The translations under genes and the position numbers were made by a program. A stretch of DNA of 64,000 bases from an uncultured beta proteobacterium (GTDB lineage Bacteria > Pseudomonadota > Gammaproteobacteria > Burkholderiales > JACQAP01): assembly GCA_963789945.1 (NCBI GenBank), contig CAWBMN010000018.1:213542-277541 (forward strand), in the 5' to 3' direction. Below the pieces are notes generated by a model, which had not been told where the DNA came from, did not search any database, and saw only the letters and a list, made by a program, of their open reading frames with translations. Below, one piece after another: positions 16,486 to 60,335 of this stretch; position 1 is the first letter of the stretch, and every line of letters starts with the position of its first letter.

Positions 16486-20114
<3,629 letters not shown>

Positions 20115-20193
20115 CGGGACATGTTTGTATTCGGAAGAGGGGACCTAACACGCGCCAGGAAAATATCACTGCATCTTTTGCCAGTGACCAAAG

Positions 20194-20370
20194 GATTCGA
20201 CGCAAAGACGCCAAGACGCAAAGAAAAGCAAAAGTGGCATGTGAAACCAGCCGCCCGTTCAACGGGCCGACGGCATGTGGTCCAAGAAATCGAATGGCGA
20301 CCGATTTGACCTTGCGCAATCCCTCACTGCAATCTTGGGTTTCTTTGCGCCTTTGCGTCTTTGCGTCAAG
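20194..20370. repeat. hairpin cassette B (GACGCAAA-type arms)
   Basis: The left arm, gattcgacgcaaagacgccaagacgcaaagaaaagcaaaag (20194-20234), is inverted relative to the right arm, tttctttgcgcctttgcgtctttgcgtcaag (20340-20370). The core is about 105 nt. Confidence 0.85.
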
Positions 20371-20425
20371 GTTTTTCCGTTTCCAGTAACTCTGGCGCGC
20401 AAGTTCGCCGTGCTAACATCCGCGC

Positions 20426-21250
20426 ATGGACGCGCTAACACCGCTGGCCGCGCTCATCCTCGGTATCGTCGAGGGGCTCACTGAATTCCTTCCGATCTCG
20501 AGCACCGGCCATCTGATCCTTGCCGGAGACTTGCTCGGGGTCAATGGTGAAAAGAGCAGGATTTTCCAGATCGTGATCCAGTGCGGCGCCATTTTCGCCG
20601 TGGTCTGGGAATACCGTGTCAAACTCTGGTCGGTCGCCGTGCAGTTGCCTCACGATCGCGGGGCGCAGCGGTTCGCTGCCAACCTGGTGATCGCCTTCAT
20701 CCCGCTTGCCGTGCTCGGATTGCTGTTCGGAAGCGCGATCAAGGCGAGCTTGTTCAAGCCGGTACCGGTCGCCATCGCATTCATCGCCGGCGGCCTGATC
20801 ATCCTCTGGGCCGAACGACGCACACATACCATCAGGATTCACAGCGTCGAGGACATGCGCTGGACCGACGCGCTCAAGGTTGGCGTCGCACAGGCCTTTG
20901 CGCTGATACCGGGGACGTCCCGCGCCGGTTCGACCATCATCGGCGGACTGTTTTTCGGACTGTCACGCAAGGCGGCGACGGAGTTTTCCTTCTTTCTCGC
21001 CATTCCCGTCCTGTTCGCGGCGTCGGCTTACGAACTGGTCAGGAATCGGCAACTCTTCTTCGTAGAGGATCTCGGGATCTTCGGCATTGGCTTGGCGGCC
21101 GCATTCGGTTCGGCATTCCTGTGCGTGCGCTGGCTGTTGCGCTACATCAGCCGCCACGATTTCACGGTGTTCGCCTGGTATCGGATCTGCTTCGGAATAC
21201 TGGTGCTCGTAACCGCGTATACCGGTGCGGTGAACTGGACGGTCAGTTGA
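20426..21250 (+). CDS. uppP: undecaprenyl-diphosphate phosphatase
   Basis: [18 protein letters not shown] and [10 protein letters not shown], the BacA motifs. Confidence 0.9.
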
Positions 21251-21773
21251 AGGGCAAGGATGAAGGATGAGGGATGAAGGATGAAGGGAAAAGCAGGGGC
21301 ACCATGCCGAGGGGTTCCGCCGAACTATTGGTTCGAACAAAGCGATTTGCCCTGAGCGTTATCAATCTTTACTCGGCGTTACCGGGCAACACGGTCTGTC
21401 AGGTGCTTGGCAAGCAGCTGTTGAGGTCCGCTACATCCGTCGGCGCGCATTACCGGGAAGCGCAGCGCGCAAAGTCAAGGCCGGACTTTATAAGCAAGGT
21501 CGAAGGAAGTCTTCAGGAACTTGACGAAACGCTCTATTGGCTGGAACTGCTGGAAGAATCCGAAACGGCCGATCGCGCATCAGTCACCCCGTTGAAGTCT
21601 GAGGCCGGGGAACTACTTGCGATATTCGTAACCATCGCGAAGTCTGCGAAAAGAACGTTTACGAAGGAGAAGTAGAGATGTGCCGGTTCGCCTTTTTCGT
21701 TTCATCCTTCATCCTTCATCCTTCATCCCTTCATCCTTGCCCCTCATCCTTCATGCTTCCGCCTTCATCCTTG
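21251..21773. mobile_element. hairpin cassette C (AAGGATG-type arms) carrying a four-helix-bundle ORF
   Basis: The left arm has aaggatg x4.7 (21256-21288). The right arm has ttcatcc repeats plus ccttcatccttgcccctcatccttcatgcttccgccttcatccttg (21701-21773). It lies between the uppP stop and the rhodanese stop. Confidence 0.85.
21274..21675 (+). CDS. four-helix-bundle protein (23S rRNA intervening-sequence protein / Avd-like family)
   Basis: QLLRSATSVGAHYREAQRAKSRPDFISKVEGSLQELDETLYWLELL matches the family signature I recall. The first codons, MKDEGK, are encoded by the repeat arm. An alternative start is ATG 21304. Confidence 0.85.
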   Translation: MKDEGKSRGTMPRGSAELLVRTKRFALSVINLYSALPGNTVCQVLGKQLLRSATSVGAHYREAQRAKSRPDFISKVEGSLQELDETLYWLELLEESETADRASVTPLKSEAGELLAIFVTIAKSAKRTFTKEK

Positions 21774-21777
21774 TTTC

Positions 21778-22230
21778 TCAGCTTTGCACCCAGGGCAACC
21801 CCGCCACGCGCCAGCCGCCAACGGCGTTGCGGTGCCCGCTTGCGTCCCTGTCGCCCTCGAATCCTTCCAGTACGTTGTAGCTCTGCGAATAACCCGCCAG
21901 GGCAGCGGCGGCGGCGGCGGCGTGCGATCTTGCGCCGCTGCGACACAGGAACATTACAAGCACCTCCTTATCAGTCTGTGCCTGGAGCTCGTTGAAGAAA
22001 TTTGGGTTCGGCCTCGATCCAGGGTAGGTTTGCCACTGGATCTGGACGCTGCCCGGGATCCGGCCGACATAATCCCACTCGGCCTGCGTGCGTACATCCA
22101 CCAGTTTTGCTCCCGGCACTTTCTGCATCAGTTCAAAGGCTTCGTGCGGAAGCAATGCACCACCATAGGGCAGGCCAAGCTTCTTGCCACGTTCAGCAGC
22201 CTTGTTCAGAATTTCTGAAATAGTGTCCAT
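21778..22230 (-). CDS. rhodanese-like sulfurtransferase domain protein
   Basis: LVDVRTQAEWDYVGRIPGS and the active-site loop CRSGARS. Confidence 0.8.
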   Translation of the reverse strand: MDTISEILNKAAERGKKLGLPYGGALLPHEAFELMQKVPGAKLVDVRTQAEWDYVGRIPGSVQIQWQTYPGSRPNPNFFNELQAQTDKEVLVMFLCRSGARSHAAAAAAALAGYSQSYNVLEGFEGDRDASGHRNAVGGWRVAGLPWVQS

Positions 22231-22465
22231 AATTGTTTCTCCAATAACTACTTAACCCTATCCCGCGGCCCTTGCGCAGGCCTTATCCAGAATCTATGCA
22301 CAAGGCTAGCAGAAAGGCTTGAATGCCCAAAAAGCTCTTGCAAAGCGCAGTGTTGTGCACTATTTTCGAGCGCAAATATCTTTCGCGCTCTTCATTGGTG
22401 CGGAAGTCTGCAAGGACATTCGGTTAACAAGTTGTGAATTAAGGATTTTTCGGGAAATTTTTGGT

Positions 22466-22481
22466 CGGCACGGTTCCTGCT
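22466..22481 (+). promoter_or_regulatory. candidate sigma-54 promoter of glnA
   Basis: cGGCACGgttcCTGCT versus the consensus TGGCACG-N4-TTGCW. The GG and GC elements are correctly spaced, about 55 nt upstream of the glnA ATG. Confidence 0.55.
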
Positions 22482-22536
22482 CAACGTGCTACTCGCTCGA
22501 TTTCCCGTGCTCTACATCCAAAACCAGGAGAAGAAA

Positions 22537-23946
22537 ATGGCGGCAGCCGATGTTTTCAAATTGCTCAAAGATAACGATGTGAAGTTCGTTGACCTGCGGT
22601 TTACCGATACCCGCGGCAAGGAACAGCACGTTACCGTCCCTGTCCGCGCTTTTGGCCCGGAGAAGTTCGAGGACGGCCATGCGTTTGACGGCTCCTCGAT
22701 AGCTGGCTGGAAGGGCATCCAGGCCTCCGACATGCTGCTCATGCCGGACCCCGACTCGGCACGGCTCGACCCGTTTTCCGACGAACCCACGCTGAACATT
22801 ACCTGCGACGTTATCGAGCCCGCAGACGGCAAGGGCTACGACCGCGATCCCCGCACCATCGCCAAGCGCGCCGAGGCGTATCTGAAGTCCACCGGAATTG
22901 GCGACACGGCTTATTTCGGTCCCGAACCCGAGTTCTTCATTTTCGACGGCGTGACCTGGAACATCGACATGTCCGGCTGCTTCGTCAAGATCTCGTCCGA
23001 GGAAGCACCCTGGTCCACGGGCAAGGAGTTCGAAGGTGGCAACATGGCTCACCGCCCGCCGGTCAAGGGGGGCTATTTCCCTGTGCCGCCTGTTGACTCG
23101 CTGCAGGATATCCGCAATGCCATGTGTCTGGCGCTGGAACAGCAGGGTGTGGAAGTGGAAGTGCATCACCACGAGGTGGCAGCCGCCGGCCAGAACGAGA
23201 TCGGCACCAAGTTCAACAGCCTGGTGAAGCGCGCGGACTGGATGCAGATCCTGAAATACACGGTCTGGAATGTCGCCCATTCCTACGGCAAGACTGCCAC
23301 TTTCATGCCGAAGCCGATCGTCGGGGACAACGGCTCCGGCATGCACGTGCACCAGTCGGTGTGGAAGGGCGGACAGAACCTGTTTGCAGGCAACGGCTAC
23401 GCCGGCTTGTCCGAACTGGCGCTTTACTACATCGGCGGCATCATCAAGCACGCCAAAGCGCTCAACGCCATCACCAACCCCGGCACCAACTCCTACAAGC
23501 GCCTGGTGCCCGGATTCGAAGCGCCCATCAACCTGGCCTATTCCGCAAAGAATCGCTCGGCGGCCTGCCGCATCCCCCACGTGGCCAGCCCGAAGGCGCG
23601 GCGCGTGGAGGTGCGCTTTCCCGACCCGACCGCGAACGCGTACCTCGCTTTCGCGGCCATGCTGATGGCGGGCCTGGATGGGATCCAGAACAAGATCCAT
23701 CCCGGCGATCCGATCGACAAGAACCTGTACGACCTGCCACCGGAGGAAGTCAAGAAGGTGCCGCATCCGTGCGCGTCGCTCGACGAGGCCCTGGAAAACC
23801 TCGACAAGGACCGGGCGTTTCTTACCAAGGGCGGCGTATTCTCCAACGACATGATCGACGCTTATATCGATCTCAAGATGGAGGAAGTCACGCGCTTCCG
23901 CATGACCACCCATCCGGTCGAATTCGACATGTACTACAGCGCGTAA
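22537..23946 (+). CDS. glnA: glutamine synthetase, type I
   Basis: [31 protein letters not shown], the adenylylation region NLYDLPPEE, and 469 aa. The ATG at 22537 lies downstream of GGAGAAG. Confidence 0.95.
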
Positions 23947-23967
23947 CACCCATTGCCACGGGAAGAA

Positions 23968-23992
23968 GGGCGGGGCCTCCCGCCCTTTTTTG
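23968..23992 (+). terminator. rho-independent terminator after glnA
   Basis: GGGCGGG-gcct-CCCGCCC stem followed by TTTTTTGTTT. Confidence 0.7.
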
Positions 23993-24122
23993 TTTGTGCC
24001 AGATCAACTCTCTGATGAGATTCGCGGATTGATAATCGAAAACGCCTGTCTTAGACTCCGGCGGGAGGCGCATCACGTGACAGGCGCCCCTCATTTCTTC
24101 GGTGATCTCACGGGTGAAATTC

Positions 24123-24602
24123 ATGCGGCTATGTCATTGGGCGCTATTGCTGGCAATCGCGTCGATCGCGGGACCTGCTCGGGCAGAGACCTGCAAGTAT
24201 GTGGACGAGGAGGGTCGCGTGATCTACTCGAACACGCCGAACAATCCTCCCAAGGGCGCAAAATTGGTGAGATGCTTCAGCGACCCCGTCGCCAAGCCGG
24301 CGCCGGCACCGCAGGAATCCAAGCCGCAGGCCGGCGCCCGGGAGGGCTTTCCCAAGGTGGATGGCGAGACGCAGAAGAAGCGCGACGACGAGCGGCGGCG
24401 CATTCTCGAAACGGAACTCGCCAACGAACAACAGCAGCTCGAGGAAGCCAGGCAGAAACTTACCGAACAGGAAGCAGTACGGACAGGCGACGAGCGCAAC
24501 TATCAGCGCTTTCTCGATCGCGTGCAGCCGTTTCGCGACACCGTAGCGAACCACGAACGCAACATCGAAGCCATCAGGCGCGAGATCTCCAACCTGAAAT
24601 AA
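24123..24602 (+). CDS. DUF4124-like secreted protein
   Basis: Signal peptide, then CKYVDEEGRVIYSNTP (the DUF4124 pattern as I recall it), and a coiled-coil C-terminus. Confidence 0.6.
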   Translation: MRLCHWALLLAIASIAGPARAETCKYVDEEGRVIYSNTPNNPPKGAKLVRCFSDPVAKPAPAPQESKPQAGAREGFPKVDGETQKKRDDERRRILETELANEQQQLEEARQKLTEQEAVRTGDERNYQRFLDRVQPFRDTVANHERNIEAIRREISNLK

Positions 24603-24734
24603 GCGGCCGCCGCCGCTGTAGCGTGCCGTCGCGCGGCATCCGCTTTCGCGTATCGCTTTTCGCGACCCGCCTTTCGACGCAATCCCCGTGGCGCGCTTCT
24701 TGCTCGATCGCAGCTGTCCGCGTGTAGCACTGCG

Positions 24735-25778
24735 ATGAAGGAACTGAGCCTTCAAGGAGTCGACGCGCTGGCGACCGCGGTCATCCTGTTGGACGAGGCA
24801 CAGGTCGTACGTTACATCAACCCGGCGGCAGAGAACCTGCTTGCGATCAGCGCCAAGAACATCGTCGGCATGCCGCTCGAGAGGGTGTTCGCCGAACCCG
24901 GCCTTCTGGTTGCCGCGGTGAACTACGCCGCCGAGAACAATTGCAGCCACACGCAGCATGAGTTGCCGCTGTCCACAACCGGCCGTGCCAGGCTCGAAGT
25001 CTCGTGCACCGTGACGCCGGTGGAGATGGCCGGGGTCGAGGGCTTTCTGATCGAGTTGAGCCCGCTGCACCAGCAACTTCGCATCGCGCGCGAGGAGCGC
25101 CTGATGGACCAGAGTACGCAGACCCGCGAGCTTATCCGCAACCTTGCGCACGAGATCAAGAATCCGCTGGGGGCGCTGCGCGGCGCGGCACAGCTCCTCG
25201 ACCGGGAACTGGAACGCCCGGCCCTTCATGAGTACACGCAGGTGATCATGAAGGAGGCGGACCGGCTGCAGTCGCTTATGGACAGGCTGCTTACGCCGCA
25301 CCGGTTGCCCCAGGTCACGCAGTTCAACGTGCACGAGGCGCTGGAGCGCGTGCGCAGTCTGCTTCTCGCGGAGTTTCCGGACGGAATCGAGGTCCGGCGA
25401 GATTACGATGTCAGCCTGCCGCCGTTGACCGCGGATCGCGAGCAGATCATCCAGTCGCTGCTCAACGTGGCGCGCAATGCCGCACAGGCCATTCAGGGCA
25501 AGGGCACGATCATCCTGCGCACGCGCGTGGCACGCCGGGCGACGCTGGCGAAGAAGATGTATCGACTGGCGTTGCTGGTGCAGATCGTCGACGACGGCCC
25601 GGGCGTGCCATTGGAACTGAAGGACAGGATCTTTTTCCCACTGGTAAGCGGGCGTGAGGGCGGCCATGGGGTTGGACTTACGATTGCACAGACCTTCGTG
25701 ACCCAGCACCACGGCACCATCGAACTGGAAAGCGAGCCGGGCAGGACCTGCTTCAGCATCCTGCTTCCGATTGAATAG
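24735..25778 (+). CDS. ntrB: nitrogen regulation sensor histidine kinase NtrB
   Basis: PAS N-terminus, H-box LAHEIKNPLGALRGAAQLL, and the ATPase motifs DDGPGVP and GHGVGL. Confidence 0.9.
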   Translation: MKELSLQGVDALATAVILLDEAQVVRYINPAAENLLAISAKNIVGMPLERVFAEPGLLVAAVNYAAENNCSHTQHELPLSTTGRARLEVSCTVTPVEMAGVEGFLIELSPLHQQLRIAREERLMDQSTQTRELIRNLAHEIKNPLGALRGAAQLLDRELERPALHEYTQVIMKEADRLQSLMDRLLTPHRLPQVTQFNVHEALERVRSLLLAEFPDGIEVRRDYDVSLPPLTADREQIIQSLLNVARNAAQAIQGKGTIILRTRVARRATLAKKMYRLALLVQIVDDGPGVPLELKDRIFFPLVSGREGGHGVGLTIAQTFVTQHHGTIELESEPGRTCFSILLPIE

Positions 25779-26288
25779 GCAAGAGCAAGGATGAAGGCGG
25801 AAGGATGAAGGATGAAGTAAAGCAGAACGTCAAGCGCGATCTGGTTGGACGCACCAGACGATTCGTGCTTGAAGTGATCATGTTTTACTCGACTCTCCCA
25901 AGCACCACGGTGTGCCAGGTGTTGGGGAGGCAGTTGTTGAGATCAGCGACTTCGGTTGGTGCCCAATACCGTGAGGCCCAACGAGCCAAATCCGGCGCCG
26001 ATTTCGTTAACAAGATTGAAGGCGCACTTCAAGAACTCGATGAAACGGGATATTGGCTGGAGTTACTCGAAGAGTCGGGAAATGCGGATGTAATTGCAGT
26101 TAAACGACTGCAGCTAGAGGACCAGGAATTGCTAAGAATCTTTGTCACAATCGCAAAGTCTTCAAAGAAACAATCGAGAAAGAGGTACCACGTGAAATAT
26201 CACAAGCCTTCATCCTTGCCCCTCATCCTTCATCCTTCCGCCTTCATCCTTGCCCTTCATCCTCCATCCTTCCGCCTTCATCCTTGCC
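25779..26288. mobile_element. hairpin cassette D (AAGGATG-type arms) carrying a four-helix-bundle ORF, inserted between ntrB and ntrC
   Basis: The left arm, gcaagagcaaggatgaaggcggaaggatgaaggatgaag (25779-25817), starts at the first nt after the ntrB stop. The right arm (26207-26288) is a duplicated ccttcatccttgcc...ccttccgccttcatccttgcc block ending 1 nt before the ntrC ATG. Confidence 0.85.
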
Positions 26289-26293
26289 TATGA
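25805..26293 (+). CDS. four-helix-bundle protein (23S-IVS/Avd-like) with an arm-encoded C-terminal tail
   Basis: QLLRSATSVGAQYREAQRAKSGADFVNKIEGALQELDETGYWLELL; I judge it roughly 60 percent identical to the 21274 copy by eye. There is no stop at the position homologous to the 21675 stop. It reads through the right arm ([28 protein letters not shown]), and its TGA overlaps the ntrC ATG (ATGA at 26290-26293). Confidence 0.8.
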   Translation: MKDEVKQNVKRDLVGRTRRFVLEVIMFYSTLPSTTVCQVLGRQLLRSATSVGAQYREAQRAKSGADFVNKIEGALQELDETGYWLELLEESGNADVIAVKRLQLEDQELLRIFVTIAKSSKKQSRKRYHVKYHKPSSLPLILHPSAFILALHPPSFRLHPCL

Positions 26294-27690
26294 AACCTGT
26301 CTGGATCATCGACGACGATCGCTCGATTCGCTGGGTGTTCGAGAAGGCGCTCACGCGGGAGAACATTGCTTTCAAGGTCTTCGCGTCCGCGCAGGAGGCA
26401 CTGGAGGCGCTGTCGGCGTCGACGCCGCAGGTGGTGGTGAGCGACATTCGAATGCCGGGCGGTTCCGGCCTCGAATTGCTGCAGAAGCTGAAGGAGAAGT
26501 TGCCCAACCTGCCTGTCATCATCATGACCGCGTACTCGGACCTCGAGAGTGCGGTGGCGGCATTCCAGGGCGGCGCATTCGAATACCTGCCCAAGCCTTT
26601 CGACGTGGACCAGGCCGTGGACTTGATTCGCCGGGCGATGGAAGAAAGCCTGCGTCAGGGCGATGTCGCCGAGGCGGCGGAGGAAGCACCCGAAATCCTT
26701 GGCCAGGCGCAGTCCATGCAGGAGGTGTTCCGTGCGATCGGACGGCTCACGCAATCGCACGCGACCGTTCTGATCAACGGCGAGTCCGGCACCGGCAAGG
26801 AACTGGTGGCGCGCGCGCTGCACCGTCACAGTCCGCGCGGGCCCAAACCGTTCATCGCCATCAATACGGCGGCAATTCCCAAGGATCTGCTCGAGTCGGA
26901 GTTGTTCGGACACGAACGCGGCGCTTTTACCGGCGCGCAGGCGATGCGGCGAGGCCGGTTCGAACAGGCCGAAGGCGGCACGCTGTTTCTGGACGAGATC
27001 GGCGACATGCCGCCCGACCTTCAGACGCGCCTGTTGAGGGTGCTGTCGGACGGCCAGTTCTACCGTGTCGGGGGGCATCAGCCGATCAAGGCCAATGTGC
27101 GCATCATCGCGGCTACGCACCAGGACCTGGAAAGCCGGGTCAAGCAGGGCATGTTCCGGGAGGATCTTTTCCACCGGTTGAATGTGATCCGCTTGCGCCT
27201 TCCGGCACTGCGCGAACGCCGCGAGGACATTCCGCTGCTTGCCAGATACTTTATGCAGAAAAGCGCGCGCGAACTGGGCGTGGAAACGAAGAAGTTGTCC
27301 GACGGAGCGATGAAATACCTCTCTGCGCTGGACTTCCCGGGCAATGTGCGCCAGCTGGAGAACCTTTGTCACTGGCTGACGGTGATGGCGCCGGGAATGA
27401 ACGTTGATGTGAAGGACCTGCCTCCGGAGTTGCGTGAAGAAGCCCATGTCAGCTCGGCGGAGAACTGGGTTACGGCATTGGAGAGGGAGGCGGAATCGCT
27501 GCTGAAACGCGGCGACAGCGCGATCCTGGACGAACTTTCCCGCCAGTTCGAGCGCGCGTTGATAACCAAGGCGCTTGCGCACACCGGCGGCCGCAGGATC
27601 GAAGCCTCGTTGCTGTTGGGCATGGGCCGCAACACGCTGACACGCAAGATCCAGGAACTCGGTCTGGAAAAGGACGATCGGCCGGATTGA
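26290..27690 (+). CDS. ntrC: sigma-54-dependent response regulator NtrC
   Basis: [10 protein letters not shown] receiver domain, the AAA+ motifs GESGTGKE and GAFTGA, and a C-terminal Fis-type HTH. Confidence 0.95.
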
Positions 27691-27716
27691 AGCCGGGAAT
27701 TTCGCTACGAAATGCA

Positions 27717-27973
27717 ACTCCTCACCACGAAGGCACGAAGCTATCGCACACGAAAGTAAAGTCTTACACAAAGCCACGAAGAAGAGCGACAAGAAAGCGA
27801 CTCGTGTAAGAAGCTCACACTTGGCGAATGTCGGCCATCAAAGTCGAACGTGGGCGGATCAAAGGATCACGCAACTCACCAAGCTTCGATCCCCAATTGG
27901 TTTGAGAATTCGTTCTTCTTCGTGTTTCTTCGTGTCCTTCGTGCCTTCGTGGTGAGCCTTTCGTGAGATAGCG
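27717..27973. repeat. hairpin cassette E (CACGAAG-type arms)
   Basis: Left arm ctcaccacgaaggcacgaag (27721-40) plus degenerate units extending to about 27790. Right arm ttcttcttcgtgtttcttcgtgtccttcgtgccttcgtggtgag (27913-56). It lies between the convergent ntrC and xth ends. Confidence 0.85.
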
Positions 27974-27979
27974 TCGTAT

Positions 27980-28748
27980 TCAGGAAGCAATCTCGGCGAC
28001 CACCGGTGCGTGATCGGAGGGCCGTTCCAGCTTGCGCATGTCCACGTGAATGCTGCTCGAACGGCAGCGCGATGCGGGTTCGGCCGACAGAAGAATGTGA
28101 TCGATGCGCAACCCCAGATTGCGCTTGAAGGCATTCATTCGGTAGTCCCACCAGGAGTATGCCTTCTCGGCCTGGTCGAACAACCTGAAGCTGTCCTTCA
28201 GACCGTGCCCGAGCAGTCGCTGAAACGCGGCACGCTCGGGCGCACTGACCAGTACCTGTCCTTCCCAGACTTTCGGATCGTGGACGTCGCGGTCTTCCGG
28301 CGCGATGTTGAAGTCGCCGAGCACCGCCAGCCTGGGATGCCTCTGCAGTTCCGTGTTTAGCCAGCGGTCGAATGCCGCCAGCCAGTCGAGTTTGTAGCGA
28401 TACTTGTCGGATTCCAGGCTCTGGCCGTTGGGCACGTACGCACATACCAGCCGCATTTCTCCCACGGTGGCAGACAGTACTCGCTTCTGCTGGTCTGGAT
28501 AGCCCCGGGATGCCGGCCTCGACCGCCTGCGGGGCATCACGAGTCAGGATCGCCACGCCGTTGTAGGTCTTTTGCCCGGAGAATACGGCGCGGTAGCCGG
28601 CCTGCGCGATTGCGTCCACCGGGAAGTTCGCATCCTCGACCTTGGTTTCCTGCAGACAAACCGCGTCGGGACGCTCGCGCGCGAGCCACTCGAGGAGATG
28701 CGGAAGGCGGACCTTCAGCGAGTTGACATTCCAGGCGGCAAGCTTCAA
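27980..28748 (-). pseudogene. xth: exodeoxyribonuclease III with a broken reading frame
   Basis: The N-terminal 82 aa (MKLAAWNVNSLKVRLPHLLEWL..CLQETKV) are in the frame of ORF 27876..28748. The rest ([26 protein letters not shown]...[11 protein letters not shown]) is in the frame of ORF 27980..28540. The two join at the C4G3 run 28503-28509, and removing 1 nt restores [11 protein letters not shown]. Confidence 0.8.
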
Positions 28749-28754
28749 GCGTCG

Positions 28755-29330
28755 TCAGTTCTGTTCGGGTACAGGTTCGGCTTCGGTGCCTTCGGGCTCG
28801 CTTTCGCTTTCGGGGGCAGCCGCCTCCGGGGCGGTCGGCTCCGGTTTGGCCTGGACCGGCGTGACCGGCACCAACGCGGTCTTGGGATAGCCTGCATTGT
28901 CGAGCGCGGCATTCCACGCCTCTTCCTCGAAACCGCGCAAGACACGGCGCCCCACCTGCAGCACCGGCGCCACTTCATCTCCACCGGTCACTTTCTTCAG
29001 CTCTTCGCGCATCCCCGGCGCCGTCGGATCCTTGGACGTGTGCGGCACGCCACGCTTGACCAGAAGGTCGAGTGCTTTACTGCAACCTTCCCCACAGTCG
29101 TACACAAATAGCGTCACCGGAAAATTTTTCATCGCCTGCTGGAGGACGTAAGGAATCGGGACGTCTCCGGGCTTGTCTCCGAGTCGCTTGACCTCGCTTT
29201 TCGTGACACCCGGCGGCGGCGGATGATCGCTGTAATGGACCCTGCCGTCGGGGTCCACCCATTTGTAAGTGTCGGCGTGCGCCGCTGCCGCGCTCGAAAT
29301 CAGCATGATCAGAAGAATCCAGCGTTTCAT
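28755..29330 (-). CDS. DUF4124 / glutaredoxin-like domain secreted protein
   Basis: Signal peptide, then TYKWVDPDGRVHYSD, and a thioredoxin-fold-like middle region (VTLFVYDCGEGC). The C-terminus is Pro/Glu-rich. Confidence 0.6.
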   Translation of the reverse strand: MKRWILLIMLISSAAAAHADTYKWVDPDGRVHYSDHPPPPGVTKSEVKRLGDKPGDVPIPYVLQQAMKNFPVTLFVYDCGEGCSKALDLLVKRGVPHTSKDPTAPGMREELKKVTGGDEVAPVLQVGRRVLRGFEEEAWNAALDNAGYPKTALVPVTPVQAKPEPTAPEAAAPESESEPEGTEAEPVPEQN

Positions 29331-32774: not shown

Positions 32775-32973
32775 TCTCACCACGAAGACACGAAGGCACG
32801 AAGAAAAACATTCAAAGTGAATGACTGAACATCGATTCTCGCCAGCACACACTGTCCAAATATATCGGCCGCTTGAGATCAACATCTCCGCATTTGAAGT
32901 TCACTGCACGCCAAAAAGTCAGGTTGGCTAATTTTTTTCGCTCTTCTTCGTGCCTTCGTGTCTTCGTGGTAAG
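32775..32973. repeat. hairpin cassette F (CACGAAG-type arms)
   Basis: Left arm tctcaccacgaagacacgaaggcacgaagaaaaa (32775-32808). Right arm ttcttcgtgccttcgtgtcttcgtggtaag (32944-32973). It sits in the pyrB / pyrC' junction. Confidence 0.9.
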
Positions 32974-41391: not shown

Positions 41392-41401
41392 GAGTCAAAT
41401 G

Positions 41402-41652
41402 CTTACCACGAAGACACGAAGGACACGAAGAAGCACGAAGAAGGGCGAAATGTAAATGACTCGTCAAATGCACAATTGTCGACCTTTGGTTGTTTCGGGT
41501 GTGACGACGACAAACCCAAATATTGGAGGCATGCGATAATCCGGGGTTGGCTGAGAGTACGCTTGCTCATCGTTGACCATCAAATATTCTCTTCGCTTTT
41601 CTTCGTGTCCTTCGTGTCTTCGTGGTGAGCATTCTGGTTTTTTCGTGGTGAG
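41402..41652. repeat. hairpin cassette G (CACGAAG-type arms)
   Basis: Left arm cttaccacgaagacacgaaggacacgaagaagcacgaagaagg (41402-44). Right arm ttctcttcgcttttcttcgtgtccttcgtgtcttcgtggtgag (41587-41629), plus a second terminus ttttttcgtggtgag (41638-52). It sits in the pepA / holC junction. Confidence 0.9.
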
Positions 41653-43361: not shown

Positions 43362-43930
43362 CTAGGGAAGCTCTGATCAAGTTCCGCGACGCGCGTTGCG
43401 CCAGGTGCGGATGACTGCTAGGGACGCCGGAGCGTGGAAGAGGGGCCCCTGGGGATCTGACCGCGTAGGCGTCCCGACGAGTGCACATGATCGGCGTGCG
43501 ATGCGAGCGACTCCGGGTCGCATCCCCGGGCCAAGGCCAGCGGAACCTGCTCCGCCTACGCGCTCGCGCTCCGCAGATGCGGCTGAAGCCCCAGCAAGGA
43601 GCGTAACAACGCAGGCGCCGCACCTGGCGCAACCCAATGACATTTCGACTCTTTAGAGGGACCGGGCGATTCGGGCCGCGTGCCGCAGCGCAGAACAGGG
43701 GCCCCTCCGGGATGTGACCGCGGAGGCACGCACAAGCACGCGCACATTCGGCACGATGCATCACGCTCTGGGTCGCATCCAAGCACACGACGCTTGGAAC
43801 CTGCTCCGCCCTGAGCGGGCGCTCTGCGTCGGCTCCTCCTTATGTAGGCCGGCTACACGGCGTCCTAGCAGTCATCCGCGACCTGGTCGCCTCGATCGCG
43901 CGTCGCGGAACTTGATCAGAGCTTCCCTAG
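43362..43930. mobile_element. non-autonomous element (MITE) with IS5-family-like termini
   Basis: Terminal inverted repeats of about 67-72 nt: 43362-43428 (ctagGGAAGCTCTGATCAAGTTCCGCGACGCGCG...GGATGACTGCTAGG) versus 43859-43930. CTAG is present at both outer ends. No transposase ORF lies inside. There is an internal imperfect direct repeat of about 155 nt. Confidence 0.5.
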
Positions 43931-46838: not shown

Positions 46839-47378
46839 CTCACCACGAAGGCACGAAGAACACGAAGAAACACGAAGAAGAACAGGAATCCTTAAATTAG
46901 AGGCCAACCGTTGAACGTGTCTTCACCGCTGTCGAGGGAAATCGAGGAATTGTCTCGAAATCTGGTCGATTCTGCGTTTAAAGTCCACCAGACTCTTGGC
47001 CCAGGCTTGCTTGAATCGGTCTACGAAGCCTGCCTGTGTGTAGAACTTAAGAAACGAGGCATCAGATACAAGTCTCAGGCACCGATACCTCTCGTCTATG
47101 AAGGTGTCTCTATCGAAGCAGGATTGCGTCTCGATCTGCTTGTCGAGGGCAGCATTGTTCTCGAAATCAAATCAGTCGAGAGGCTGTTGCCGGTTCATCA
47201 AAGTCAGTTGTTGACGTACTTGAAACTTGCCGATTTGCACTTGGGCTTGCTCATCAATTTCAATGTTGCCATGTTCAAGCAAGGCGTGCGACGGATCATT
47301 CGCTGAGCAATGCCATCGCTCTTCGTTCTCTTTGCTTTTCTTCGTGTTTCTTCGTGTTCTTCGTGCCTTCGTGGTGAG
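46839..47378. mobile_element. hairpin cassette H (CACGAAG-type arms) carrying an intact GxxExxY ORF
   Basis: The left arm 46839-46880 and right arm 47337-47378 are complementary at 41 of 42 positions by hand count. It lies between the valS stop and the MFS start. Confidence 0.9.
46911..47306 (+). CDS. GxxExxY protein (PD-(D/E)XK nuclease-like)
   Basis: FKVHQTLGPGLLESVYEACL contains GxxExxY. RLDLLVEGSIVLEIKSV fits D...ExK. QLLTYLKLADLHLGLLINF is the family C-terminus. The gene is AT-richer than its surroundings. Confidence 0.85.
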   Translation: MNVSSPLSREIEELSRNLVDSAFKVHQTLGPGLLESVYEACLCVELKKRGIRYKSQAPIPLVYEGVSIEAGLRLDLLVEGSIVLEIKSVERLLPVHQSQLLTYLKLADLHLGLLINFNVAMFKQGVRRIIR

Positions 47379-47395: not shown

Positions 47396-48640
47396 ATGAA
47401 CCATGCTTTAAGGGCGTTCAGGCACCGGAACTTCCGCCTGTTTTATGTCGGCCAGGCAATTTCGCTGATCGGCACCTGGATCCATCAGATTGCACTCGCC
47501 TGGCTGGTGTACCGCACCACCGGCTCCGGCTTCCTGCTGGGGCTGGTCACTTTCTGCAACCAGGTTCCGCTGCTTGTCGTCATGCCGTTTGCGGGCCTGC
47601 TCAGCGACCGCTACGACCGGCGCAGGATTCTTATCATCGCGCATGCGCTGGCGGCGCTGCAGGCGCTGGCGCTGGGCATCCTCACGCTGTCGGGCGCAAT
47701 CCAGACGTGGCAGATTCTGCTGCTCGGACTCCTGTACGGCGTCATCATGGCTTTCGAAACACCGGCCCGGCAGTCGCTCATCAGCCAGATGGTTGCATCC
47801 AGGGAGGATCTGCCCAATGCCATCGCGCTGAACTCATTCCTGATGAACAGCGGCAGACTGGTCGGCCCGTCGATCGCGGGTCTGCTGCTGGTGTTCGTGA
47901 GCGAAGGCTGGTGCTTTCTCGTCAACGCGGTGAGCTTCTTCGCGGTAATCGTAGCGGCAGTCATGATGAAGCTGGAGCCGAGAAAAGTGGCAACCAGAAC
48001 CGTATCGCTGCTTGCGGGGCTGAGCGAGGCGGCGGGCTATGCGTGGAACGCGCGCCCCATCAGGGTGTTCCTGTTGCTGGTGGCATGGCTGAGCCTGACG
48101 GCGACACCGTATCCGGTGCTGATGCCGATTTTCGCGAAGGACGTGTTCCACGGCGGCGCGCATACCCTGGGTTTTCTGGTCGGCTGCGCAGGTCTCGGTG
48201 CCGTGATCGGCACCGGGTTCCTTGCCACGCGGCCGAACGTGCTGGGATTGAGCAAATTGATCGCGGCGACCTCGGCGACGGCCGGCATAGCGCTGTTCCT
48301 GGTCGGGGTATCGAAGATCTACTGGCTGTCGCTGTTGCTGATGGCCTGCCTGGGATTCGGCATCATCGTCACCGCCGCTTCGGTGAACATGATGCTGCAG
48401 ACCATGGTGGAGGAGGACAAGCGCGGACGGGTCGTCAGTTTCTACGCGATGGCCTTCCTGGGCGTGGCGCCGTTCGGTGGATTGATGGCCGGCGCGCTGG
48501 CCAGCCACATCGGCGCACCGGCGACCGCGATGATCAGCGGCGGTTGCTGCCTGCTGGGCGCGTTACTGCTTTCCCGCCACCTGCCCGCCATTCGCACCGA
48601 CCTGCATCGCGCTCTGATCCGATTGCCAGATGAAACTTGA
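47396..48640 (+). CDS. MFS transporter
   Basis: 414 aa, about 12 hydrophobic segments, and an N-terminal FRHRNFRLFYVGQAISLIGTW motif typical of MFS_3-type exporters. Confidence 0.85.
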   Translation: MNHALRAFRHRNFRLFYVGQAISLIGTWIHQIALAWLVYRTTGSGFLLGLVTFCNQVPLLVVMPFAGLLSDRYDRRRILIIAHALAALQALALGILTLSGAIQTWQILLLGLLYGVIMAFETPARQSLISQMVASREDLPNAIALNSFLMNSGRLVGPSIAGLLLVFVSEGWCFLVNAVSFFAVIVAAVMMKLEPRKVATRTVSLLAGLSEAAGYAWNARPIRVFLLLVAWLSLTATPYPVLMPIFAKDVFHGGAHTLGFLVGCAGLGAVIGTGFLATRPNVLGLSKLIAATSATAGIALFLVGVSKIYWLSLLLMACLGFGIIVTAASVNMMLQTMVEEDKRGRVVSFYAMAFLGVAPFGGLMAGALASHIGAPATAMISGGCCLLGALLLSRHLPAIRTDLHRALIRLPDET

Positions 48641-48651
48641 AAAACGCAAAT

Positions 48652-48856
48652 TTCACCACGAAGGCACGAAGACACGAAGAAAATTCGGAAGAATGATTTC
48701 TGCAGCGGGCCGATGTCGAAATCAGCCGGATAACGGACCTTATCCAACCCCTTCAGATTGTGCCCTTTGCCGCCTTGTCTTTCTTCGTGTCTTCGTGTCT
48801 TCGTGGTGAGACTTTGACTTTTCGTCTTGCGGATGGCTTCGTGCCTTCGTGGTGCG
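48652..48856. repeat. hairpin cassette I (CACGAAG-type arms) with an extra outer terminus
   Basis: Left arm 48652-48683 and right arm 48778-48810. A 46-nt extension (48811-48856) ends in a second cttcgtggtgcg terminus. Confidence 0.85.
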
Positions 48857-50410: not shown

Positions 50411-50688
50411 TCTCACCACGACGCTACAAAGCCATACGCAAAACGAAAAATCAAAGTCTCACCACGAAGACACGAAGAACACGAAGAAAACCTCAACAAA
50501 AATCCTGAAATTGGGCTTGCGGTGCGGAACACACTATCCACAAGTGTCCAGCAACTGAGAGACCTCGATTGGTGAGCGCTGCGCAATCGGGTTCGCGAGG
50601 GCAGGTAACTCTGTGCATTCCCGCGTTCAATCGATATCGTCTGGCCTTCCTTCGTGTTTCTTCGTGTTCTTCGTGTCTTCGTGGTGAG
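50411..50688. repeat. hairpin cassette J (CACGAAG-type arms) with an extra outer terminus
   Basis: An outer terminus plus 46-nt extension at 50411-50456 is the inverted homologue of 48811-48856. The inner left arm is 50457-50491 and the right arm is 50646-50688. Confidence 0.85.
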
Positions 50689-52759: not shown

Positions 52760-52827
52760 ACGGTCTCCTGAACACTGTGGCAGATCGCAAAGCGGGGAAA
52801 CTTCATCACAGGACCAAAAGGATATGC

Positions 52828-53041
52828 CTTACCACGAAGGCACGAAGACACGAAGAAGGCGAGTGATCGTATATTCTCGACCCGATACCGCCGTGGCGCT
52901 GATGGGACGTTCGACCCATTTGCGGTCAACTTGGAACGGACCACTCCGAGATCGAAGGTCCCGCGATGCAGACACTGAAATGAGGCATAGCAGTTTAACG
53001 TGCTCATGCATTTCTTCGTGTCTTCGTGCCTTCGTGGTGAG
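52828..53041. repeat. hairpin cassette L (CACGAAG-type arms)
   Basis: The left arm 52828-52858 and right arm 53011-53041 are complementary at 29 of 31 positions by hand count. It sits in the trpG / trpD junction. Confidence 0.9.
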
Positions 53042-53062
53042 ATATCTGATTTTGACCAGCCA

Positions 53063-60141: not shown

Positions 60142-60299
60142 TCTCACCACGAAGGCACGAAGACACGAAGAAAACCCCGGAACCAATCAGTAGAGAAAAT
60201 GGGGCCGGCGGAACTAAGGGGACACTACCTGCGAGCGTTGATTGCTTTGGTAGAACTTCGACTCTGCATTTCTTCGTGTCTTCGTGACTTCGTGGTGAG
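60142..60299. repeat. hairpin cassette O (CACGAAG-type arms)
   Basis: The left arm 60142-60174 and right arm 60269-60299 are complementary at 30 of 31 positions by hand count. It lies between the convergent mltA and tonB-like ends. Confidence 0.9.
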
Positions 60300-60335
60300 A
60301 TTTGCGAGTCGTATTCATGGGTGATCGTCCCTATA

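Follow-up and report, generated by a model that had tools for sequence, protein, structure and literature searches.

In a 64,000-nt stretch of DNA from an uncultured betaproteobacterium (Burkholderiales), hereafter called the window, the gap between the genes ntrB and ntrC is filled by a 511-nt cassette (25779-26289), made of an open reading frame framed by two inverted arms. This cargo ORF reads through the right arm and ends in a TGA which overlaps the ntrC start codon. The locus therefore raises the question whether ntrC translation has come to depend on ribosomes terminating at the end of the cargo ORF, as had been predicted from the window alone, or whether the overlap is an accident occurring in an element which merely resides in the operon. 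The comparisons described here make the latter answer likely: the cassette would be a selfish hairpin of the intervening sequence (IVS) type, and the overlap an incidental, tolerated frameshift.

The structural part of the original prediction was borne out by the reanalysis of the junction. The cassette is located exactly between the two genes, the ntrB TAG occupying positions 25776-78 and the ntrC ATG starting at 26290, and cargo stop and ntrC start overlap as ATGA. A purine-rich Shine-Dalgarno (SD) sequence was sought directly 5' of the window ntrC ATG, which is preceded by ...ccttcatccttgcct (also given as ...ccgccttcatccttgcct), and none was found. The ORF does run through the right arm, its tail being made up of 35 codons past a frameshift, about 29 of which fall within the arm; the ORF of the paralogous cassette C stops ahead of its own right arm, as had been noted. 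The proposed stem of more than 35 bp around the cargo is supported by arms which are 97% complementary, with pairing extending outward past them. Neighboring genes, both in the window and at the orthologous loci, are only glnA, DUF4124, ntrB, ntrC and xth. A scan of positions 24400-26600 revealed neither a sigma-70-like promoter nor an intrinsic terminator, and no Rfam family, rRNA included, matched within 19000-29000, the whole window giving only a tRNA. The coordinates of all features are reported in Table 1.

Table 1. Features of the ntrB-ntrC junction and of the paralogous cassette C. Positions refer to the window.
Feature	Position	Strand	Basis and remarks
Cassette C, paralogous PF05635 cassette	21251-21777	+	between uppP stop and rhodanese stop; ORF 21274-21675
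ntrB (glnL), sensor kinase	24735-25778	+	ORF; PAS, HisKA, HATPase_c; TAG stop 25776-78
Left arm	25775-25817	+	inverted repeats I1, I2; MFE fold; conserved in 7 orthologues
Cargo ORF, 162 aa	25805-26293	+	PF05635, TIGR02436, PDB 2RLD matches
1-nt insertion, cargo frame +1	~26182	+	alignment A1 column 459 vs six orthologous cassettes
Ancestral cargo stop TGA, now out of frame	26193-26195	+	alignment A1; frame analysis
Right arm, proximal copy	26204-26257	+	CCTTCAT/CCTTCCG heptamers; stem with left arm -67.8 kcal/mol
Right arm, distal copy	26255-26291	+	ends at ntrC ATG; stem with left arm -64.3 kcal/mol
ATGA, ntrC start and cargo stop overlapping	26290-26293	+	read in sequence
ntrC (glnG), sigma-54 activator	26290-27690	+	ORF; receiver, sigma-54 AAA+, HTH_8

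The cargo protein matches the PF05635 family, '23S rRNA-intervening sequence protein', with E=3e-15 and above the curated cutoff of 33.8 bits, residues 16-120 spanning positions 4-108 of the 109 of the profile. It also matches TIGR02436, 'four helix bundle protein' (E=9e-21), and a structurally solved relative, PDB 2RLD (E=1e-17). The family-like portion corresponds to residues 1-126, while residues 127-162 constitute a frameshift tail derived from the right arm. This tail is absent from the 16 closest homologues found and from the other full-length members of the 90% cluster of the window protein, all 126-148 aa long and ending in ...KKQSRKG(T/N)K; within the cluster it is found in 1 of 10 members. 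With dN/dS values of 0.11-0.42 among orthologues, the cargo is, by this measure, a real gene under purifying selection.

The left arm is composed of tandem AAGGATG/AAGGCGG heptamers, which are SD-like, and contains the cargo ATG; its outermost pairs take in the ntrB stop codon. It matches two stretches on the right side, since 25781-25815 is complementary to 26223-26257 (35 nt, 97%) and 25785-25817 to 26255-26287 (33 nt, 97%), and the right arm is for this reason a tandem duplicate, a point absent from the original prediction. At the base of the stem ATAGGCAAG (25775-83) pairs with CTTGCCTAT (26283-91), so that both the ntrB stop and the initial AT of the ntrC start codon are paired (ATAG/CTAT). 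The junction region folds at -209 kcal/mol (z = -7.4), and forcing the right arm to be single-stranded costs about 63 kcal/mol. The stems formed by the left arm with either right copy are nearly isoenergetic, and with the duplication the ntrC leader can therefore be unpaired some of the time. In the fold model, the bases beside the ntrC ATG are also freed when the ntrB stop and the following 15 nt are kept single-stranded. With 17 occurrences in the window, against 0.67 expected, the motif GGATGAAGG is present more often than chance would give.

In order to establish how old the insertion and the overlap are, the junction was compared in relatives found among NCBI MAGs and JGI and ENA metagenomes, where loci are designated by L numbers. 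Seven other alleles (L081/82, L083-85, L086, L162, L167, L168 and L169), from at least seven other lineages, have an orthologous cassette at this junction, and their ntrB is 87% to 98% identical to that of the window at the nucleotide level. Identity among ntrB orthologues is 94-98%, and NtrC proteins are 94-99.8% identical across junction alleles. In each allele whose right junction was recovered, the arm on that side ends in CCTTG(C/T)CT, directly followed by ATG, and in these orthologous alleles no SD is found 5' of ntrC. The position of the cargo stop is what sets the window apart. In the five alleles with an intact cargo and a recovered ntrC start, the ORF ends with AAG-TGA or TAG, 52-61 nt upstream of ntrC; L162 shares the stop codon, but its cargo is frameshifted, and L081 was excluded from this measure because its contig ends ahead of ntrC. 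Testing the overlap itself for conservation gave the same 52-61 nt distance, and no ATGA overlap, in L083, L086, L162, L167, L168 and L169. These sister alleles have a SD-less ntrC ATG, and the stem at whose base it lies has a stability of about -65 kcal/mol. None of the seven orthologous alleles shows the overlap: the insertion is old and shared, and the read-through derived.

The stem is retained in all seven orthologous cassettes (7/7), whose pairs are nearly all invariant and hence give no covariation signal. Support for paired arms comes instead from the comparison of different cassettes: over 70 of them, the median arm complementarity is 22 for cognate arms, against 12.5 for non-cognate and 8.5 for shuffled ones. 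By analogy with the rRNA IVSs, the stem is a likely RNase III substrate.

Alignment A1 traces the read-through to one nucleotide, AGAAAGAGG in the window versus AGAAAAGG in the orthologues, inserted three codons 5' of the ancestral TGA. All orthologues have a stop at the ancestral position, either AAG-TGA or, in L086, TAG-TGA. A second change private to the window is a right arm about 36 nt longer than that of the orthologues. This pyrimidine-rich arm is free of stop codons in every sense frame. Translation in the ancestral frame would end at 26195 and in the +1 frame at 26293, within the ATGA, and the third is the open frame of ntrC. A +1 shift consequently leads to the ATGA and a -1 shift to a cargo-NtrC fusion; because the arm is devoid of sense-strand stops, the overlap is the automatic outcome of a +1 shift. 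As aligned, the read-through is explained by the single inserted base together with the stop-free arm, and the ATGA overlap probably stems from a recent one-base frameshift, with no conserved design behind it.

The window allele was found a second time. L166 (JGI 3300038383) encodes exactly the same 162-aa protein, duplication included, and shows zero differences from the window over 720 nt (25680-26399), while the ntrB and ntrC flanks differ by 3-6%. Such a pattern suggests that the allele was recently transferred by recombination or that the assembly is strain-chimeric; it could also reflect the spread of a favoured allele, which would argue for an adaptive role.

Other genomes have different sequences at the same place. 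L170 (ENA ERZ25039602) encodes a NtrB identical to that of the window, and its DNA is 99.7% identical to the window up to 25776 and again from 26290, but the junction is occupied by an unrelated, ORF-less 140-nt hairpin, set in its boundaries as TGA|TCGGGGAATGGGGAAC...GGTAGAACC|ATG, whose strong stem ends about 28 nt ahead of the ATG. A 197-nt element of the same type is found in L001, which is nested in the cassette-bearing clade, and hairpins of several unrelated sequence types are located at the junction in other betaproteobacterial lineages (L007, L015, L016, L018, L036). Among 79 relatives, the overlap of ntrB and ntrC is the 4-nt ATGA (gap -4) in 15 and a single nt in a further 3; relatives without an insertion show either of these arrangements or have a short spacer between the genes, and an obvious SD is usually lacking. 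The absence of a SD in insertion-free relatives, along with the 94-99.8% identity of NtrC across alleles, indicates that SD-less ntrC is the ancestral condition. The ORF-less hairpin of L170, set between nearly identical flanks, indicates that no cargo ORF is needed for ntrC, and, as read from these alleles, ntrC expression would survive every kind of junction occupant.

The original site may still be recognizable. In L083, L162 and L170 the element is flanked left and right by ATGA, as would fit an insertion into an ancestral overlap; the right-hand TGA would then be a relic of the old ntrB stop, and the window ATGA is probably a relic of the ancestral ntrB/ntrC overlap. Both flanking copies of ATGA are, however, needed by ntrB and ntrC regardless of the insertion history.

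The explanation favoured as likely assembles these observations as follows. A selfish, promoter-less hairpin of about 0.5 kb, carrying a PF05635 gene with SD-like motifs and ATG in the left arm, would have entered the ntrB/ntrC junction in the ancestor of an uncultured Burkholderiales clade. The target was probably an ATGA stop/start overlap, leaving ATGA on both sides. The cassette would since have segregated alongside at least one other hairpin allele, the alternatives being exchanged by homologous recombination in the genes on either side. A single extra base in the window allele shifts the cargo frame, making the ORF run through the arm to the TGA of the ATGA. Ribosomes that translate the tail would open up the right arm and reach their stop codon at the ntrC ATG, probably raising initiation in this allele; both derived changes, frameshift and arm duplication, could plausibly have such an effect. 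Coupling is pictured as a plausible, derived state of the window allele and as no requirement across the clade.

A stronger role for the ORF was considered, in which ntrC needs cargo ribosomes that cross the arm, terminate at the ATGA and reinitiate, frameshift and duplication having both been selected. The SD-less ntrC and the overlap agree with it, as do the pairing of the ntrC ATG at the stem base and the cost of opening the right arm, about 63 kcal/mol, which only a translating ribosome would overcome. Purifying selection on the cargo and the occurrence of an identical allele on two backgrounds otherwise 3-6% diverged also fit, and two of the three other read-through cassettes detected (L113, L146) end a few nt from the ATG of the next gene. 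The dependence of ntrC on termination-reinitiation from the cargo, which was the functional core of the original prediction, nevertheless found no support in the comparative evidence: sister alleles lack the overlap, L170 lacks any cargo ORF, and insertion-free relatives are SD-less as well. The overlap is derived and rare (1/10 of the 90% cluster, 0/7 orthologous junction alleles), the sisters keep a SD-less, stem-embedded ATG without it in front of NtrC proteins 94-99.8% identical, the ATGA outcome is forced by the sequence, and strain chimerism in the assembly could account for the shared 720-nt tract. Adaptive re-coupling is for these reasons considered unlikely. That the read-through is produced by a spurious 1-nt indel is far less probable still: the whole feature hangs on one base, and repeat-built arms are prone to misassembly, but the inserted base lies outside any simple homopolymer run and both the exact 162-aa protein and the 720-nt tract recur in the independently assembled contig of L166. 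A sequencing or assembly artefact was rejected on this ground.

Rather doubtful, although less so than re-coupling, is an effect of the hairpin independent of its cargo, whereby the cassette and not the ORF sets the NtrB:NtrC ratio. It is conceivable that a ribosome terminating on ntrB covers the left arm over its first 12-15 nt or so and then reinitiates on the other side of the stem base; the pairing of ntrB stop with ntrC start (ATAG/CTAT) would suit this route, as would the freeing of the bases beside the ATG when the ntrB stop plus 15 nt are single-stranded, but the L170 stem, ending about 28 nt short of the ATG, indicates that a stem flush with the start is not general. It is also conceivable that the stem is cleaved by RNase III, whose excision of IVS stems from rRNA is documented (PMC4990558), and that a short ntrC leader remains. 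Retention of the stem in 7/7 orthologues and the recurrence of differing hairpins at the junction (L001, L007, L015, L018, L036, L170) would be expected under either route; against them, the argument is a structural one, and the almost complete invariance of the orthologue pairs yields no covariation. The incidental frameshift in a selfish hairpin remains the preferred reading.

The cassette is a member of a larger group. A metagenome scan, combined with look-ups, detected 83 cassette loci, almost all having inverted arms of tandem 7-8-mers of the form AAGGNNN, with units such as AAGGATG, AAGGCGG, AAGGCAG, AAGGAGG, AAGGCGA, AAGGGAC and ATGGCGG, among others. The arm sequence varies between cassettes, while complementarity is kept within each. 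The cargo stop precedes the right arm or falls at it in about 78 of the 83 loci, and the ORF reads into the arm in only 4. The notion that cassettes always follow the stop of a co-oriented gene was discarded: in 31 of 43 cases an ORF of 80 codons or more ends no further than 3 nt, in either direction, from the start of the left arm, a figure compromised by the fact that GGATGAAGG arms hold TGA in all three frames and that high-GC DNA gives long spurious ORFs. Assignment of neighbor orientation from open frames or GC3 was similarly dropped, as known ntrB flanks were mislabelled.

Replacement of one element by another was found at other sites too. In the uppP-rhodanese slot the same two element types alternate, the boundaries always being TGA on the left and TCA on the right. 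The window has a full PF05635 cassette there, L171 a 119-nt version with the same arms and the cargo deleted, L172 a cargo-less array of about 17 CCTTCAT units, and L174 a hairpin of the GGGGAATG/GTGATTAA type. A third slot extends from the ntrC stop to the xth stop, and contains CACGAAG arms in the window and L166, CACGGAG/CTCCGTG arms in L083, with a concerted change in both, and GGACGCCA arms in L086, where the interior is homologous to that of L083. Judging from these alignments, hairpin elements replace one another precisely at gene boundaries, and do so at three loci. At least 12 hairpins of such kind are present in the window, one of them with CACGAAG arms and a GxxExxY/PDDEXK_3 cargo.

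A wider reading, possible but tentative, would combine these data: a family of IVS-type cassettes would swap in stop-bounded slots, the stem would keep the ATGA pair adjacent, so that coupling survives the hairpin, and the 23S IVSs would be the members residing in rRNA. Under this reading, the arms are built of tandem AAGG-type heptamers, the cargo is a PF05635 or GxxExxY/PD-(D/E)XK protein, or none, slots start at a stop and end at the next stop or start, and replacement occurs at identical boundaries even between genomes 99.7% identical; the +1 allele would achieve this coupling by another path.

Whatever the route, the exchange of slot occupants is more interesting than the coupling claim itself. 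An IVS architecture is found here within a conserved regulatory operon, inherited in a clade, under purifying selection, and swapped with other hairpins at gene boundaries. The ntrB-ntrC junction offers a natural series of alleles: the cassette occurs intact, in its frameshifted read-through form and, in L162, with a cargo broken by a frameshift, and an unrelated hairpin can take its place. To these the uppP-rhodanese slot adds a cargo-deleted version of the same arm type. The series could be used to test the effect of hairpins on operon expression, RNase III processing in mRNAs and the movement of the elements. It also suggests caution, as a neat ATGA overlap can arise automatically from a frameshift into a stop-free repeat.

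A literature search of incomplete coverage found no PF05635, TIGR02436 or GxxExxY hairpin cassettes outside rRNA, but only papers on IVSs and on diversity-generating retroelements (DGR). The closest known relatives are the ORF-bearing IVSs of 23S rRNA genes in Coxiella burnetii, Leptospira, Brucella and Xanthomonas, which encode 'S23p', that is PF05635 (PMC4990558), and which for about 30 years have been known only as oddities fragmenting 23S rRNA, their origin and mobility being unexplained (PMC4990558). The Coxiella IVS is 428-444 nt long, with a 28-bp terminal stem cut mid-stem by RNase III, tandem heptamers in variable number before the S23p ATG, and an AG-rich SD within the stem (PMC4990558). 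The ntr cassette and the 23S rRNA IVSs share a size of about 0.43-0.5 kb, a stem of 28 bp or more formed by terminal inverted repeats, tandem heptamers of varying copy number ahead of the PF05635 ORF start, an AG-rich SD in the stem and the lack of a promoter of their own. Heptamer copy number varies among the elements described here as well, the left arm being doubled in L083 and the right arm in the window, with about 17 units in L172. The ntr cassette differs in being located between two protein-coding cistrons rather than in helix 25 or 45, in its heptamers (AAGGATG/AAGGCGG, against GACAGAT in the Coxiella IVS), and in having an ORF under purifying selection, whereas that of the Coxiella IVS is decaying. 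By these shared features, the ntr cassette is an IVS-type element placed in mRNA instead of rRNA.

The cargo also belongs to the same superfamily as Avd of the DGRs, a pentameric, basic four-helix bundle of the PF05635 type. Avd sits with the DGR reverse transcriptase and a TR/VR pair, while the neighbors of the ntr cargo show neither and a hairpin brackets the gene. Correia elements, REP/BIME and MITEs likewise carry inverted repeats into the intergenic parts of transcripts, where they can act as RNase III targets or mRNA stabilisers. The ntr cassette resembles them as an inverted-repeat element within an operon, and cargo-less derivatives exist here too (L171, L172); unlike them, it contains a conserved protein gene, its arms are tandem heptamers with no unique TIR, and elements of its type swap at exact stop/start boundaries. 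A search for target-site duplications detected the ATGA...ATGA of the ntr site, although the genes need both copies, and no consistent direct repeat flanking the elements at the uppP-rhodanese or L087/L088 sites.

With ATGA termination-reinitiation pairs the window allele has in common the stop/start overlap and a SD-less downstream gene. It departs from a canonical coupled pair in having as its upstream ORF a selfish gene that has undergone a frameshift, and in that no orthologous allele shares the overlap; the canonical form, a ntrB/ntrC ATGA overlap, is that of 15 of the 79 relatives. What appears to be new here is the occurrence, at an operon junction, of an IVS-type element whose architecture was previously known from 23S rRNA.

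At the ntrB-ntrC junction, a 140-nt hairpin of the GGGGAATG type, without an ORF, is found in L170 (positions 2545-2684; L-numbers denote related loci from MAGs and metagenomes), where the window has the 511-nt cassette 25779-26289. The two loci are 99.7% identical in ntrB and ntrC, their homology ends exactly at the stop codon and restarts exactly at the ATG, and the hairpin enclosed is unrelated to the window cassette. L001 has an element of the L170 hairpin's type, 197 nt long.

Variable contents were similarly observed in the uppP-rhodanese slot, which holds the full PF05635 cassette in the window, a cargo-less element with the same arms in L171, a version in which CCTTCAT is repeated about 17 times in tandem in L172, and a GGGGAATG/GTGATTAA hairpin in L174; every occupant compared is bounded by TGA on the left and TCA on the right. 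Between the hydrolase gene and uppP, a further hairpin (20199-20367) has GACGCAAAG-repeat arms of 38 nt, 84% complementary, and an interior of 93 nt. In the ntrC-xth slot the interiors of the orthologous hairpins are homologous and the arm repeats differ: L083 has CACGGAG/CTCCGTG, L086 has GGACGCCA and the window has CACGAAG. The change is a concerted one, affecting both arms.

Hairpins and cargo of the slots and of the CACGAAG group (plain coordinates refer to the window).
Feature	Slot or context	Position
Full PF05635 cassette	uppP-rhodanese	21251-21777
Relatives' occupants	uppP-rhodanese	L171:810-928; L172:2275-2464; L174:2254-2347
Orthologous hairpins	ntrC-xth	L083:4853-5075; L086:4344-4600
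Hairpin cassette, CACGAAG-repeat arms of 46 nt, 96% complementary		46839-47378
GxxExxY / PD-(D/E)XK ORF, 131 aa, PF13366, TIGR04256	inside cassette 46839-47378	46911-47306
Seven hairpins without ORF, CACGAAG(N) repeat arms	intergenic	27720-27960; 32776-32973; 41398-41633; 48639-48823; 50458-50688; 52815-53054; 60142-60300

The GxxExxY ORF is a second type of cargo, carried by the same kind of element as the PF05635 cassette, and the seven ORF-less hairpins are likely relatives of its cassette devoid of cargo.

Cargo 88-89% identical to that of the ntr cassette lies at an unrelated locus (L087:652-1120, L088:2469-2943), within cassettes bounded by TAG and CTA; its presence there is evidence for movement of this cassette lineage from site to site. 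Decay is under way in some of the orthologous cargo genes, by a mid-ORF 1-nt deletion in L162 (762-1138) and by an in-frame deletion (VCQ--GRQLL) in L081 (3001-3381). In two further cassettes, L113:425-883 and L146:894-1292, the ORF runs through the right arm and stops a few nt from the next ATG (ATGccTGA and TAAttttATG, respectively); the gene downstream of the L113 cassette retains its own GGAGG SD.

L166, the second assembly carrying the read-through allele, matches the window without a difference over 720 nt (25680-26399 = L166:1284-2003), comprising the cassette with some 100 nt to its left and right; the flanks of the two assemblies differ by 3-6%. Either recombination produced the identical tract or one contig is a chimera of strains. 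Hairpin 27720-27960 contains half of all the differences that separate L166 from the window.

Finally, at 43362-43930, 501 nt containing internal direct repeats lie between terminal inverted repeats of 34 nt that match perfectly (CTAGGGAAGCTCTGATCAAGTTCCGCGACGCGCG); the arms are not of the heptamer type, and the element may be a MITE.
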